A stretch of DNA of 64,000 nt from Candidatus Wolfebacteria bacterium GW2011_GWE2_44_13 (GTDB lineage: Bacteria; Patescibacteriota; Minisyncoccia; UBA6257; UBA9933): contig LCHW01000001.1 in assembly GCA_001000675.1 (NCBI GenBank), positions 488,875-552,874 on the forward strand. Reading direction: 5' to 3'. Positions 15,536 through 61,110 of this stretch are shown here, piece by piece; the stretch's first letter is position 1; every line of letters begins with the position of its first letter. The notes beneath the pieces were generated by a model. That model searched no databases, was not told the origin of the DNA, and saw nothing but the letters and a program-made list of their open reading frames with translations. The position numbers and the translations under genes are program-made.

Positions 15536-15712
15536 TATTTGTGTCATTCCCACCCTTCGTCCGCCAACCGGCGGATCAGAGTAAACTGCGGCGGGAATCC
15601 AGAATTCTTCCGAGTACGCCCTCCCAATCCTAGAGGGCTTATGAGTAAGAACAGACTCTAAGGAGAATCTGGCGATTTCCTAGATTCCCGCCTGCGCGGG
15701 AATGACAATCAG
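15536..15712. repeat. REP/MITE-like palindromic element (long copy)
   Basis: Terminal inverted repeats TGTCATTCCC...GGCGGGAATCCAGAATTC and CTAGATTCCCGCCTGCGCGGGAATGACA flank about 120 bp. It belongs to the same family as the elements at 36.6, 46.7, 48.0, 49.05, 51.5 and 61.1 kb. Confidence 0.6.
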
Positions 15713-15912
15713 TTGAAGCTTATGGAGCCAATGCGTTTTTACGAATTTCGAGCGCACCACGAAAGCAGAGCATCCACATATCCGGTATTATCCCCACTAT
15801 ACATTCTCCAGCTCCCTTCTTAGGCTTATCCGTTCTACTTTTGTTCTACATACATTCACTACGCTATATACACGTTCATTATCGTATGTTCTACATCTGT
15901 TCTATATCTACC

Positions 15913-15946
15913 AAAAAAGAGGCTTTTCTATTGCCTCTTTCTTTTT
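15913..15946 (-). terminator. rho-independent terminator downstream of proB
   Basis: AAGAGGCaatagaaaaGCCTCTT hairpin followed by a T-run on the minus strand. Confidence 0.5.
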
Positions 15947-16668
15947 ACCTTAAACGTCGTTCCTATTTCTTTTCCATCTATTGCATCAATGATCGCGTTG
16001 CGCTTTTTGCCAGGCACAAGCCATACGCCAACCCCCTTTTTACATACCATATCAGCAACCGTCAGCTTACTTTGCATCCCCCCACTTCCCACAGCGCTTT
16101 TCCCCCGCACAAGCTGAGATGCCTTTTGTATATCATCCACCGCATGAATAACCTCACCCGTGTCGTAATTAATCAAGCCTTTTTCTCTAATAAGAAGGTA
16201 TAGCTGATCAGCTGCAATCATCGTTGCAACACGTGCCGCAAGGATGTCATTATCTGCATATTCTTTTATTGCATCCAGCTCTTCCCCACTCACGCTGTCA
16301 TTTGCGTTAATTACGGGAATGATTCCGTTCTTCATGGCTTCTAAGAGTACCTTTTTCGTATACGTACTGCGCTCGCCGCTCAGATCTTCATGTGTATAGA
16401 GTAGCTGACATACTTCGCGTCCAAATTTATTACAGTAACTCCCATACAGTTGCATCAACTTTGGCTGCCCAATTGCCGCACGAAGGCTTTTAGAAAACGT
16501 CGTAGTTGGACAACTTGCCACTGCCCCCGAAGATACCAACGCAACCGAGTGTCCGCGGCTAATTAGTTCGTTTACCTGCTCCACGATAGATGCGATAGTG
16601 CGTCGGTCTATTACCCCGCCTTCTTTCTTCACAAGTACCGCGCTCCCAATTTTTATCACGATCTTCAT
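15928..16668 (-). CDS. proB: glutamate 5-kinase (no PUA domain)
   Basis: Has the KIVIKIGSAVL N-terminus, the AVGSGGMQSK ATP-binding motif and the amino-acid kinase fold pattern. Start is placed at the internal ATG (MKIVIKIGS). Confidence 0.85.
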   Translation of the reverse strand: MKIVIKIGSAVLVKKEGGVIDRRTIASIVEQVNELISRGHSVALVSSGAVASCPTTTFSKSLRAAIGQPKLMQLYGSYCNKFGREVCQLLYTHEDLSGERSTYTKKVLLEAMKNGIIPVINANDSVSGEELDAIKEYADNDILAARVATMIAADQLYLLIREKGLINYDTGEVIHAVDDIQKASQLVRGKSAVGSGGMQSKLTVADMVCKKGVGVWLVPGKKRNAIIDAIDGKEIGTTFKVKRKRQ

Positions 16669-16699
16669 ACTTTTATTATATATGTTTGTCCATATAAAT

Positions 16700-16728
16700 A
16701 AAATCCGCGGGCATACGCCCGCGGCTCT
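16700..16728 (-). terminator. rho-independent terminator
   Basis: CCGCGGGCgtatGCCCGCGG hairpin followed by attttattt on the minus strand, directly after the 16730 gene stop. Confidence 0.5.
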
Positions 16729-16729
16729 G

Positions 16730-16915
16730 TTATCCACTTCCCCGCCAATCACTTTCCTTTTCCTCTTTCTCCTGCACAACACATGTTCCGATCTGTACCT
16801 TATCAAAACAACTTACACAGGCCATGATCTCATTGCCTTTTCTGTCCCTATCGGACAGCGGCTTCATTTTTCCTCTGAACAGATACGGCTTGCCACATAG
16901 CATACAGTGGGGCAT
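16730..16915 (-). CDS. small zinc-ribbon protein (CxxC...CxxC)
   Basis: 61 aa with two CxxC pairs. A strong GAGGAGGG Shine-Dalgarno sits 6 nt upstream of the ATG, and a dedicated terminator follows. Confidence 0.55.
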   Translation of the reverse strand: MPHCMLCGKPYLFRGKMKPLSDRDRKGNEIMACVSCFDKVQIGTCVVQEKEEKESDWRGSG

Positions 16916-16938
16916 GTTCCCTCCTCGTCTTTTCGAAT

Positions 16939-17733
16939 TTATTTGCTGTCATTAGTGTCTTCCACTTGCTTCTTATTGTCAAACCGCAGACTATCGCCAA
17001 TTGCATATGGCCCTACGCTTGTTCGCACTAATCGGGCGAGTATCGCGTCTGCGCCCAACTGTCTTCCTATTGTATGTGCAAGCGTGCGGATATATGTTCC
17101 ACTCCCGCATTGCACCGTTACGCGTACAACGTCGAATATTTCCTTTTCTTTTTCACCCAACAAAGCATTCCATTGAGCTACTATTGCTTCTTGTCTAAAA
17201 TCTCCTGCTACGTTTCCAATATTTTTTTTAATCACATCTTGTAGCGCTAACCCCGTTACACTTCTTCGCTCTATCACGCGCATCGATTGTACACACATTA
17301 ATCGCGTTGGGGTTTTTATTTCATGCATTCTATTTTCGCGCGCCCATTGAAATAATGGTTTACCTTCTACCGGTTTTGACGAGTATATCGGAAACGCATA
17401 TTCTTTTTCACCATGCATATTTTTGATCGCTTCTTCTAGTTGCTCATTTGTAATCTTTTGGGCTGCGCGTATCGTCGGCATACCTAAAAGATCGTGCGTA
17501 TCTGTTCCAATACCGAACATAATATCAGCCTCGTATGTTTTATCGAGTTTTGTATATTCTTCTTTTGTATGCACCGCCTCCCCTACAAGTACCACTAATA
17601 CGCCTTCTGCCATGGGATCAAGTCGCCCTGCATATGTCATCTTTGCGTCCTGTAATTCTGGACGCACTTTGCGCAATGCATCGAGCGCCTGTAATGGCGT
17701 CCATCCTAGGGGTTTATAAATATTCAATACCAT
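16939..17733 (-). CDS. truB: tRNA pseudouridine synthase, TruB-family
   Basis: The YAGRLDPMAEGVLVVLVGEA segment matches the TruB/Cbf5 catalytic-Asp motif (GTLDPxAxGVL). Confidence 0.75.
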   Translation of the reverse strand: MVLNIYKPLGWTPLQALDALRKVRPELQDAKMTYAGRLDPMAEGVLVVLVGEAVHTKEEYTKLDKTYEADIMFGIGTDTHDLLGMPTIRAAQKITNEQLEEAIKNMHGEKEYAFPIYSSKPVEGKPLFQWARENRMHEIKTPTRLMCVQSMRVIERRSVTGLALQDVIKKNIGNVAGDFRQEAIVAQWNALLGEKEKEIFDVVRVTVQCGSGTYIRTLAHTIGRQLGADAILARLVRTSVGPYAIGDSLRFDNKKQVEDTNDSK

Positions 17734-17764
17734 TTTTTCTCAAGCGTAAGCATTCAGACATTCG

Positions 17765-59702: not shown

Positions 59703-59761
59703 ACTTATTTCAACCCTATTCTATTAAAGGGGTTAGTAACCGCCCACTCATTAATCCCCTC

Positions 59762-59826
59762 AATCTTACCAAATTTCATCCATTATGTAACCAACACAAA
59801 ACGAGGCCGTGGGACATCGTTTTGGG
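59762..59826 (-). promoter_or_regulatory. terminator-plus-promoter cassette, copy C (hairpin degenerate)
   Basis: TTACAT-16-TAAGAT with the ccaacacaaaacgaggcc block, upstream of 58995..59702. Confidence 0.5.
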
Positions 59827-60004
59827 GGTGAATCCGACCTATATGGGTCGGGTTCACCAAATTTATCTGTCTTGTCCTAAGCTTGCCGAAGGGAATCCCT
59901 CTCGAGGAGCCGTTCGGCAAGCTCAGGGTAAACGTCCTACCTCTCCTTGGGAATGTCCCCGCGCCCCGAAGAGTGGGCTCCGGATATTTGGCAAAAATTC
60001 AGCA

Positions 60005-60160
60005 AAAAAAACCGAAGGGATATCCAAATAGGAACTTATCAAGACATTCCACGATCTCAGCCTTGATGTTTATGAGCCGGAAGAAAAATTGACAGGAGGG
60101 GTATTCTTCCGGCAACTAATGAATTATCAGAGGAAGATGCGAAAGCATATTTTAAAATGT
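60005..60160 (+). pseudogene. frameshifted fragment paralogous to the 46390..46608 small acidic protein gene
   Basis: Nucleotide and peptide similarity: ELIKTFHDL...EPEE...SEEDAKAYFKM* against ELIKAFEDL...EPEE...SEEDVRAYFKI*. The frame breaks mid-copy. Confidence 0.45.
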
Positions 60161-60204
60161 GAAATCAAAGGCACCTGACCCCTTATTTGCATTGTATTTG
60201 ACTA

Positions 60205-60855
60205 CTAAACACTCTTGCGTCTATCCCTAAAGAAGATCGCTAAGAACAACAAAGAACCTGGAACAGTAATCGCCCAAGGCGCTCCTAACATCAAAATTGG
60301 CACCGAAAATACTGGATAAAAATATGCAATCGAAAAGAAAGGCGTAATCAAACCGTTCGCCATGAGGGACCATCTGACCCATTTCTGTAATCCTTGTTTT
60401 TCAAAAATTGGAATTAAAAATATAGTCGCCAAATTCAAAAATATATAACCCAATCCATCTATATCCCAAAAAAGGGAGTGTGGGGTCTGATTGAGAACAC
60501 TAAGCGGACCGAGTGTGCCCTGTTGGTTTTCAAAGGTCCAAAAATATCCTGCAGGTATTACGGTGGCCAATTGCACAACATAGTTTAGCGTGCAATACAC
60601 TGCATATATAACAGCGAGTACAATTGCCGTATGGGTCCAAAATCTCTTTTCTTCCGAAACCGTATGGTGGAGTGCGAGTGTAACAAGTAAAAATGGAACC
60701 GGCATCATGAGCGAGAAGCCAAATGCCATAGCTGCATTTTGCAAAGGAGTCATCAAATTTAAAATTTGCAGAGGTACGCTTGCCACATATCCGACTGCAC
60801 CAATGAAGGCGGTCAAGGCTGACCAGTAGCCTATTGTTAGTATGGTTTTTTTCAT
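60205..60855 (-). CDS. polytopic membrane protein, paralog of 58995..59702
   Basis: 216 aa with about 6 TM helices. See the paralog blocks listed for 58995..59702. Confidence 0.6.
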   Translation of the reverse strand: MKKTILTIGYWSALTAFIGAVGYVASVPLQILNLMTPLQNAAMAFGFSLMMPVPFLLVTLALHHTVSEEKRFWTHTAIVLAVIYAVYCTLNYVVQLATVIPAGYFWTFENQQGTLGPLSVLNQTPHSLFWDIDGLGYIFLNLATIFLIPIFEKQGLQKWVRWSLMANGLITPFFSIAYFYPVFSVPILMLGAPWAITVPGSLLFLAIFFRDRRKSV

Positions 60856-60985
60856 GACATAATTATATCAAAAAAAATACATAAGACAATTATGATAAGC
60901 ATAGGGCTAAAGGCATTAAAACATTAAAGTTAATGGGGGTAGCCACTATTAATTCATCGATTCATACCCCACTCATTAATCCCTA

Positions 60986-61048
60986 AATCTTACCAAATTT
61001 TTACCTACTATGTAACCAACACAAAACGAGGCCGTGGGGCCTCGTTTT
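60986..61048 (-). promoter_or_regulatory. terminator-plus-promoter cassette, copy D
   Basis: AAAACGAGGCCccacGGCCTCGTTTTgtgttgg followed by TTACAT-17-TAAGAT, upstream of 60205..60855. Confidence 0.55.
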
Positions 61049-61084
61049 GGGTGGATTCTTTAATGCAGCAAAATAACAACTCTG

Positions 61085-61110
61085 GATTCCCGTTTTCACG
61101 GGAATGACAG
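61085..61110. repeat. REP-like hairpin (GGATTCCCGttttcaCGGGAATGACA)
   Basis: Single arm of the dispersed family. Confidence 0.4.

Follow-up and report, generated by a model that had tools for sequence, protein, structure and literature searches.

Dispersed hairpin repeats of the dRS3/NTS/SRM family in a Candidatus Wolfebacteria genome, with an Ssn-type nuclease as their probable partner

Introduction

The closest described relative of the repeats considered here is the "Neisseria Transformation Sequence" (NTS), CGTCATTCCCGCGMAVGCGGGAATCYRG, for whose generalised form Chenal et al. 2025 (PMC11893778) introduced the name Ssn-related motif (SRM). The nuclease Ssn binds the hairpin formed by this sequence only in single-stranded DNA (ssDNA) and cuts a few nucleotides (nt) 5' of it; for SsnA, cleavage needs the three bases 5' of the palindrome, and binding needs the C directly 3' of it (PMC11893778). 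In Neisseria, Ssn trims incoming transforming ssDNA and lowers recombination beside the repeats, while dRS3 is cited as the target of a phage recombinase (PMC11893778). Here, we describe a family of short palindromic repeats dispersed along 64,000 nt of Candidatus Wolfebacteria bacterium GW2011_GWE2_44_13 (contig LCHW01000001.1, positions 488,875 to 552,874; this whole stretch is called the window), and we show that these repeats securely belong to the dRS3/NTS/SRM hairpin family. The host genome is one of the candidate phyla radiation (CPR; Parcubacteria) from the Rifle aquifer.

Results

The window repeats are copies of a published hairpin motif

The repeats occur in two forms. The short unit has a 28-nt consensus, TGTCATTCCCGCG-N3-GCGGGAATCYAK, while long units consist of the arms GTCATTCCC and GGCGGGAATC placed 35-55 nt apart, usually with a hairpin of their own in between. 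In total, the window holds eight short units, three long units and one degenerate copy spread over seven to eight sites, against a chance expectation for copies of 0.1-0.3. Compared with dinucleotide-preserving shuffles, GTCATTCCC was found nine times rather than the expected 0.30, and GCGGGRATC ten times rather than 0.78; ATTCCC-N8-GGGAAT gave six perfect matches, with 0.09 expected.

To assign the units, we used the published definition of an NTS (no more than one mismatch to CGTCATTCCCGCGMAVGCGGGAATCYRG; PMC11893778) and the SRM pattern HGTCWYN(0-2)YYVSBRHN(0-5)WNVSBRGN(0-2)RNCYNB. Seven units matched the SRM pattern, compared with a mean of 0.11 and a maximum of 1 in 100 dinucleotide-preserving shuffles. 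Two of the eight short units, 15680-15707 (-) and 51542-51569 (-), qualified as NTS, and the other six differed from it at 2-4 positions, chiefly the 5' T, the loop bases and the last base. The positions critical for SsnA, namely the GTC before the palindrome and the C after it, were preserved in all 11 full units.

The initial annotation had allowed that these repeats might be a local family, which proved not to be so, as the published motif was found exactly across phyla. The exact 24-nt pattern had at least 120 matches in one-genome-per-species contigs, and the matches listed include Alpha-, Beta-, Gamma- and Deltaproteobacteria, Chloroflexota, Bacteroidota, Planctomycetota, Nitrospirota, several CPR lineages and Neisseria. 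At least 120 further matches were found in viral contigs, and the C-type variant present in the window doublets, GGATCCCC...GGGGATGAC, had at least 120 matches in metagenomes. Where the motif is translated, it yields the recurrent spurious peptides VIPAKAGIQ, WIPAFAGMT and HSRESGNP. Four more full units were detected in the 10 kb on each side of the window (20 kb in total), so that the family clearly extends beyond it. The 84 kb thus covered, about 14% of the 608-kb scaffold, contain roughly one unit every 5 kb. We rejected three alternative identities, namely integron attC sites, CRISPR repeats and intrinsic terminators, on the grounds of cross-phylum conservation, the lack of an array structure and the lack of a T-tract.

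Units are arranged as singlets, outward-facing doublets and inverted composites

The coordinates of all units are given in Table 1. Each of the seven sites reported in the initial annotation (15.5, 36.6, 46.7, 48.0, 49.0, 51.5 and 61.1 kb) contains at least one full unit, while the additional fragment reported near 26.16 kb consists of half-sites only and is possibly, at best, a decayed remnant of uncertain membership. The degenerate copy was absent from that list. It occupies, within a duplicated segment, the position that a short unit has in the 61-kb paralogue, and short and long forms swap for one another in place.

Table 1. Repeat units and related features of the window, and tandem half-site arrays in other loci (coordinates of the latter refer to the locus named).
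Feature	Coordinates	Strand	Description
Long unit, left arm of composite inverted pair	15543-15602	+	GTCATTCCC, inner hairpin GTCCGCC..GGCGGA and TAAACTGCGGCGGGAATCCAG
77-nt spacer between the inverted units of the 15.5-kb composite	15603-15679	.	Unique
Short unit TGTCATTCCCGCGCAGGCGGGAATCTAG	15680-15707	-	1 mismatch to published NTS consensus
Two 5' half-sites, ATTCCCGTAGCG and ATTCCCGCGGATAC, without 3' arm	26150-26185	+	
Long unit, singlet, 75 nt	36606-36680	-	Pattern search
Short unit, singlet	46682-46709	+	14 nt beyond stop codon of cupin gene (46723-47154, - strand)
Doublet	47985-48050	.	T-type unit 47985-48012 (+), 10-nt spacer, C-type unit 48023-48050 (-)
Second doublet	49040-49105	.	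Units 49040-49067 (+) and 49078-49105 (-)
Long unit, left arm of composite inverted pair	51479-51535	+	Pattern search
Short unit TGTCATTCCCGCGAAGGCGGGAATCTAG, right arm of pair with 51479-51535	51542-51569	-	1 mismatch to NTS
Degenerate long unit	56434-56492	-	Arms decayed, inner hairpin GTCCGCC..GGCGGAC retained
Short unit, compensated stem change CCCGT/ACGGG	61082-61109	-	Pattern search
Tandem 5' half-site array, L040	1977-2060		
Tandem 5' half-site array, L067	2419-2514		
Tandem 5' half-site array, L174	2327-2413		
Tandem 5' half-site array, L252	2751-2837		
Tandem 5' half-site array, L383	~2190-2293		

Besides the half-site remnant, the units are arranged as singlets (36.6, 46.7 and 61.1 kb), as outward-facing doublets and as inverted composites of a long and a short unit (15543-15707 and 51479-51569). 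This variety of singlet, doublet and mosaic forms agrees with the insert variation first described for the family, as in repetitive extragenic palindromic (REP) sequences, bacterial interspersed mosaic elements (BIMEs) and miniature inverted-repeat transposable elements (MITEs). The two compound palindromes near 47982 and 49036, for which at least 90% identity had been claimed, span 47984-48050 and 49039-49105, contain doublets of 66 bp each and are 96% identical. The C-type unit of the first doublet reads GTCATCCCC..GGGGATC. The TGTCAT ends of this doublet point outward, and the doublet lies 32 nt beyond the stop codon of a META-domain gene. The second doublet is located with the terminator of a Band_7 gene on one side and the promoter region of the META-domain gene on the other, and the META-domain gene is bracketed by the two doublets. 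The 75-nt long singlet fills part of a 116-nt gap between an ABC-transporter gene and an RNase-H1-N-domain gene, and it is identical across loci L001-L004. No second copy of the 77-nt spacer in the 15.5-kb composite was found in the window or in ~360 loci collected from genome, metagenome and viral scans. We also considered whether the long units or this spacer contain an inserted second repeat family or a decayed ssn gene, which was unsupported, since the inner parts and the spacer match nothing else.

Single-stranded units are predicted to form asymmetrically flanked hairpins

As ssDNA, the short unit is predicted to form an 8-bp stem with a 4-nt loop, ATTCCCGC-N4-GCGGGAAT, with conserved asymmetric flanks, namely a 5' TGTC and a 3' C. 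Predicted folding energies of short units range from -7.8 to -9.0 kcal/mol (z -4.1 to -4.7), and the doublets are predicted to form long hairpins of -22 to -29 kcal/mol, with the doublet at 47985-48050 reaching -29 kcal/mol (z -10). The long unit at 15543-15602 is predicted to combine an outer and an inner stem of 6 bp each (-10.6 kcal/mol). Three units carry compensated stem changes, from T-A to C-G in the units at 48023 and 49078 and from C-G to T-A in the unit at 61082. No Rfam family was detected at the repeat sites.

Every copy lies between open reading frames (ORFs), as had been noted at the outset; usually, a copy either directly follows a stop codon or separates a terminator from the promoter after it. 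This placement would suit elements that the host has adopted for a function of its own, such as transcript 3' ends or stability, gene insulation or sites for a DNA-binding protein, and that are maintained by selection for that function rather than by a nuclease. At 49016-49045 (-), the outer end of the doublet also reads ATGACA on the opposite strand, 18 nt from TAAAAT and directly upstream of the META-domain gene, so that, as a consensus match only, it may give this gene a -35-like hexamer. On the other side, units are found in both orientations relative to transcription, and no T-tract follows any of them. None scores as an intrinsic terminator, and separate canonical terminators adjoin units (e.g. 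49120-49145), with the units not being among the terminator-like sites in 46300-51800. The terminator role suggested in the initial annotation therefore falls away for want of a T-tract.

Elements are invariant between strains that differ elsewhere

Exact protein look-ups located the window proteins in ACD_81 contigs and in the close relative GW2011_GWC2_39_22 as well. On a scaffold of 608,601 bp, the window corresponds, as reverse complement, to about 51.9-115.9 kb. Variation in insertion between strains had been put forward as a mark of mobility, and it did not materialise: three assemblies at ~96-97% nucleotide identity carry every tested element in the same position. In the next-nearest relatives (70% amino-acid identity), synteny is lost, and in one of these the META-domain gene is preceded by a single unit.

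We compared substitution levels with the most divergent close strain, L365 (~96% identity). Coding DNA differed at 183 of 5298 positions (3.5%) and intergenic DNA outside the elements at 74 of 1221 (6.1%), while no substitutions (0%) were found in the 251 positions inside elements. At the intergenic rate, such a result has a probability of about 1.5e-7, and at the coding rate one of 1.5e-4. Not only the stems are unchanged but also the spacers of the doublets and the inner part of the only long unit in the comparison (51479-51535), and the other two close strains gave the same pattern. These data point to strong purifying selection or continual homogenisation, and since every tested copy is unchanged in place, they suggest constrained, long-resident elements rather than recent hopping.

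Zero substitutions, with spacers and inner hairpins included, would also be expected of elements that were adopted by the host. Such adoption leaves unexplained why the same 24 nt with asymmetric flanks recur in unrelated phyla and around ssn genes (see below). We consider it unlikely, and it is compatible with the nuclease-based explanation that we favour; the alternatives discussed here are not all mutually exclusive.

Gene content differs between these strains at ~96% identity (window 45722-46341 and 44339-45313 versus L365 8639-11205). A 165-aa ORF at 45806-46303 is absent from GCA_003508115.1, which instead has DsbD_TM and thioredoxin-family genes beside a response-regulator gene; there is no repeat unit at either junction between the window and GCA_003508115.1.

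In other genomes, the motif brackets small GIY-YIG nuclease genes

ORFs located 300 nt or less from a motif copy were clustered across the ~360 loci. Two gene families recurred beside the motif, namely small GIY-YIG (Ssn-like; PF01541) genes, in five loci by clustering and in 11 by hidden Markov model (HMM), and insertion sequence (IS) 110-family transposases (PF01548 and PF02371), in ten loci.

The Ssn-like genes are part of a regular module in which a forward unit is followed after 6-25 nt by a gene for a 94-101-aa GIY-YIG protein and, after a further 7-24 nt, by an inverted unit, with the TGTCAT ends facing outward. The NTS-ssnA-NTS architecture of PMC11893778 was thus independently recovered in the fetched loci. 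The window doublets have the same arrangement minus the gene; because they share this geometry, they look like REPIN/MITE-type derivatives (REPIN, REP doublet forming a hairpin).

Two CPR genomes, a Patescibacteria metagenome-assembled genome (MAG) and Candidatus Staskawiczbacteria, carry the unit-ssn-unit module. In the former, TTGTCATCCTCGCGAATGCGGGGATCC precedes ssn by 17 nt and an inverted unit follows the gene after 6 nt, with the same 5' T as in the window units. In Staskawiczbacteria, ssn is bracketed by a GTCATTGC...GCAATC variant; the copy upstream of the gene is of the long type and contains a nested hairpin, and a canonical doublet lies 2.7 kb from the gene. The presence of a nested-hairpin long unit at this ssn gene indicates that the window's long units truly belong to this element rather than being unrelated insertions.

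Tandem 5' halves, each with an additional 8-12 nt, stand in 2-4 copies ahead of a full unit in several unrelated genomes (e.g. three copies of GTCATTCCCGCCCTCCCTC; Table 1). One such array lies directly upstream of a CPR ssn gene, and none was found in clear form in the window. These arrays may be the footprint of a cleavage or copying reaction.

A low-GC metagenome contig, Ga0156727_110 (L158, GC 38%), encodes an Ssn-like protein within a diversity-generating-retroelement-like locus (858-5076) that also comprises a reverse transcriptase, a four-helix-bundle (Avd-like) protein and a lectin-fold-like target gene. The Ssn-like GIY-YIG gene adjoins the reverse transcriptase gene, and two identical 264-nt repeats (3362-3625 and 3886-4149) contain one C-type unit each (3500-3524 and 4024-4048). 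The closest relatives of this Ssn-like protein include the Staskawiczbacteria and Patescibacteria MAG proteins.

The second gene family raises the question of whether the units are mainly landing sites for site-specific recombinases of the IS110/Piv type, as dRS3 is for filamentous prophages of Neisseria, and otherwise passive. A full unit was located 135-260 nt beyond the stop codon of the IS110-family gene in nine of ten loci, in agreement with the report that a recombinase targets dRS3 (PMC11893778). Nevertheless, no IS110-family gene was found in the 84 kb (Pfam-scanned window ORFs and precomputed domain calls on the flanks), and a role as target would leave the multiplication of units, the outward-facing doublets and their conservation unexplained. 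This explanation therefore appears very improbable to us.

No partner gene was found in the window or its flanks

About two thirds of the window ORFs were scanned against Pfam, and all ORFs of the window and flanks were searched with an Ssn HMM. In agreement with the initial annotation, which had reported no cognate transposase in the window, no transposase-type gene was detected, nor was any Ssn, RAYT (REP-associated tyrosine transposase), IS110 or integrase gene. Precomputed Pfam calls on the two 10-kb flanks likewise included no Ssn, RAYT, IS110 or integrase gene, and tblastn and HMM searches based on Ssn sequences yielded no Ssn homologue in the window, flanks or close relatives. With a Methylotenera Ssn as query, only its near relatives were among the 120 matches listed, while a low-GC Ssn query reached Staskawiczbacteria and the Patescibacteria MAG and no Wolfebacteria.

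A transposase with matching terminal inverted repeats, which the initial annotation had proposed to seek elsewhere, gave way to a different kind of enzyme: the gene found between units in other genomes encodes a GIY-YIG ssDNA nuclease (Ssn) and not a DDE transposase. No parent IS encoding a DDE transposase and ending in the same terminal inverted repeats was found beside units in the window or in the other loci; the IS110-family genes beside units are of the DEDD type. Target-site duplications, a further expectation for a mobile element, were also lacking at the doublets; read directly, the sequences around them, ...GCATTT|unit...unit|TGTACA and ...ATAGCT|unit...unit|GAAGGT, contain no direct repeat.

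These features bear on the possibility that the doublets are REPINs copied by a RAYT, a domesticated HUH/Y1 transposase encoded once per genome. REPINs consist of two inverted REP units less than 130 bp apart, a spacing shown by both doublets and both composites, and the lack of target-site duplication and the vertical persistence would also be consistent with a RAYT. Moreover, Bertels and Rainey assigned the ATTCCCGCGCAGGCGGGAATC REPINs in Neisseria to a Group 2 RAYT (10.1101/2021.07.10.451892). Against this, the Pfam-scanned window ORFs contain no Y1_Tnp domain, and no RAYT-like ORF was found in the ~360 loci by an HUH...YxxNP pattern or by an Escherichia coli RayT seed, both of which are weak tests. 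In 11 loci, units instead bracket Ssn genes. We accordingly regard copying by a RAYT as improbable.

An Ssn-type nuclease is the probable partner of the units

By analogy with the characterised Neisseria and Wolbachia enzymes, we favour with moderate confidence the explanation that the window units are recognition sites of an Ssn-type nuclease encoded, or formerly encoded, elsewhere in the Wolfebacteria genome. The units would fold into hairpins once replication or DNA uptake makes the DNA single-stranded; an Ssn-type GIY-YIG nuclease would then recognise the hairpin in one strand and cut a few bases 5' of it. Strand-specific cleavage of this kind would influence recombination near the genes that the units flank and is probably the basis on which the repeats are copied, with the doublets as putative gene-less (REPIN/MITE-like) derivatives of the unit-ssn-unit module. 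The REP/MITE-like reading of the initial annotation is retained as far as it describes dispersed, intergenic hairpin repeats with no mobilising gene in the window; it needs revision in that the doublets lack target-site duplications and that an ssDNA nuclease is a likelier partner than a classical transposase.

Several observations weigh against a nuclease of this type as partner. No Ssn-like ORF, which would be a single-domain GIY-YIG gene of the cd10448 type, was found in the 84 kb analysed, and only two of the eight short units conform to the strict NTS, with T preceding GTC here where Neisseria has C. No presence/absence polymorphism or empty site was seen among the close relatives. The invariance of the elements reflects constraint or homogenisation without specifying its purpose, and equal invariance would be expected if the units served the host as RNA 3' ends, bound a protein or were sites of recombination. 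In addition, Ssn homologues differ in specificity, and the enzymes studied experimentally are those of Neisseria and one Wolbachia enzyme only (PMC11893778). Finally, another study ascribes this sequence, in Neisseria, to a RAYT transposase (10.1101/2021.07.10.451892).

A further-reaching idea, which we consider possible but doubtful, is that unit-ssn-unit is a mobile element of a new mechanistic type, in which a GIY-YIG nuclease takes the place of an HUH or DDE transposase and which spreads via ssDNA hairpins and has crossed phyla, including the DNA-scavenging CPR, with the doublets and composites as its gene-less derivatives. Were this so, the nested-hairpin long units and the tandem half-site arrays might, equally tentatively, represent footprints of the copying reaction.

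Other features of the window

The possible half-site remnant lies in the spacer between two tandem ~100-nt units at 26035-26141 and 26251-26357 (+), which are 87% identical. Each follows a promoter-like sequence, TTGACA...TGCAATACT, and ends in a 16-bp terminator hairpin. As RNA, they are predicted to fold with -45 and -41 kcal/mol (z about -8), and no Rfam match above noise was found for them. They resemble two sibling small RNAs, with what looks like a decayed repeat half-site separating them.

A second repeat family of 60-110 nt was observed at 51440-51467, 56298-56403, 57159-57264, 59740-59845, 60965-61070 and 62073-62134. On the - strand, its members combine a GGCC-stem terminator hairpin with a conserved promoter-like TTACAT-N17-TAAGAT, and they lie directly upstream of six - strand genes in a variable region with NYN-domain, hydrolase and membrane-protein genes. 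This family looks like a shared terminator/promoter cassette boundary. Beside this variable region are defence genes, namely an AlwI-type restriction endonuclease with a D12-class adenine methyltransferase (53644-56235, -) and, separately, a GmrSD-N-domain protein (28147-29436, -).

An ORF of 3360 aa (3980-14062, -) contains 16 tandem 282-nt (94-aa) repeats that are 67-84% identical, and it has Big_3_5/TIG matches; judged by its sequence, it encodes a giant surface protein of Ig-like repeats. The version on a related contig is 3215 aa long, suggesting that repeat number may vary between strains.

Discussion

The family itself was already published in 2025, together with the hairpin it forms, its broad occurrence and the nuclease that partners it, and REPIN-type doublets of the same sequence were described earlier. 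What is new is the documentation of the motif in Wolfebacteria and other CPR genomes, the strong constraint in situ and the nested-hairpin long form at ssn flanks. The Ssn/NTS hairpin system is now placed in streamlined CPR genomes. CPR bacteria are thought to depend on the uptake of foreign DNA, so a strand-specific nuclease acting on ssDNA hairpins could matter for the handling of incoming DNA. The short, C-type and long nested units provide concrete candidate substrates for CPR Ssn enzymes. For annotation, recognising the motif removes spurious ORFs and accounts for a class of repeats that otherwise seems lineage-specific.

With the NTS/SRM-SsnA system, the window units share the core GTCATTCCCGCG-N3-GCGGGAATC, the 8-bp/4-nt hairpin and the GTC and C on its 5' and 3' sides, and they are likewise intergenic, multi-copy and gene-flanking, as for the META-domain gene between the doublets. 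The window differs in its host, a CPR genome well under 1 Mb, in having T and not C before GTC, and in that nested-hairpin long units are common. The likeness to dRS3 is exact for ATTCCC-N8-GGGAAT in six window units, and the mosaics of repeat units and unique spacer at 15543-15707 and 51479-51569 resemble the organisation of Neisseria intergenic mosaic elements (NIMEs). Unlike in dRS3 and NIMEs, the window spacers are unique rather than recurring RS blocks, and the host is unrelated to Neisseria.

To our knowledge, GIY-YIG enzymes form no covalent DNA intermediate. The subterminal hairpins of IS200/IS605, which are recognised as ssDNA by the Y1 enzyme TnpA and cut a few nucleotides to one side, offer a parallel that was drawn by the authors of the Ssn study (PMC11893778); Ssn differs in enzyme class, being GIY-YIG rather than Y1. 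As in MITEs (e.g. Correia elements) and E. coli BIMEs, the repeats are short, non-coding and intergenic, with inverted ends and some promoter-like end hexamers, but they differ from these in lacking target-site duplications and a DDE transposase with matching ends and in having a basic unit of only 28 nt. With REPINs and REP sequences (Bertels and Rainey; Nunvar et al.), they share the formation of a long hairpin by two inverted units, the absence of target-site duplication, vertical persistence and high conservation, and the master sequence of the Neisseria REPIN is the same 21-mer. In contrast with REP families, which are normally species-specific, the window sequence is cross-phylum, and the gene found between its units encodes a GIY-YIG protein and not an HUH transposase.

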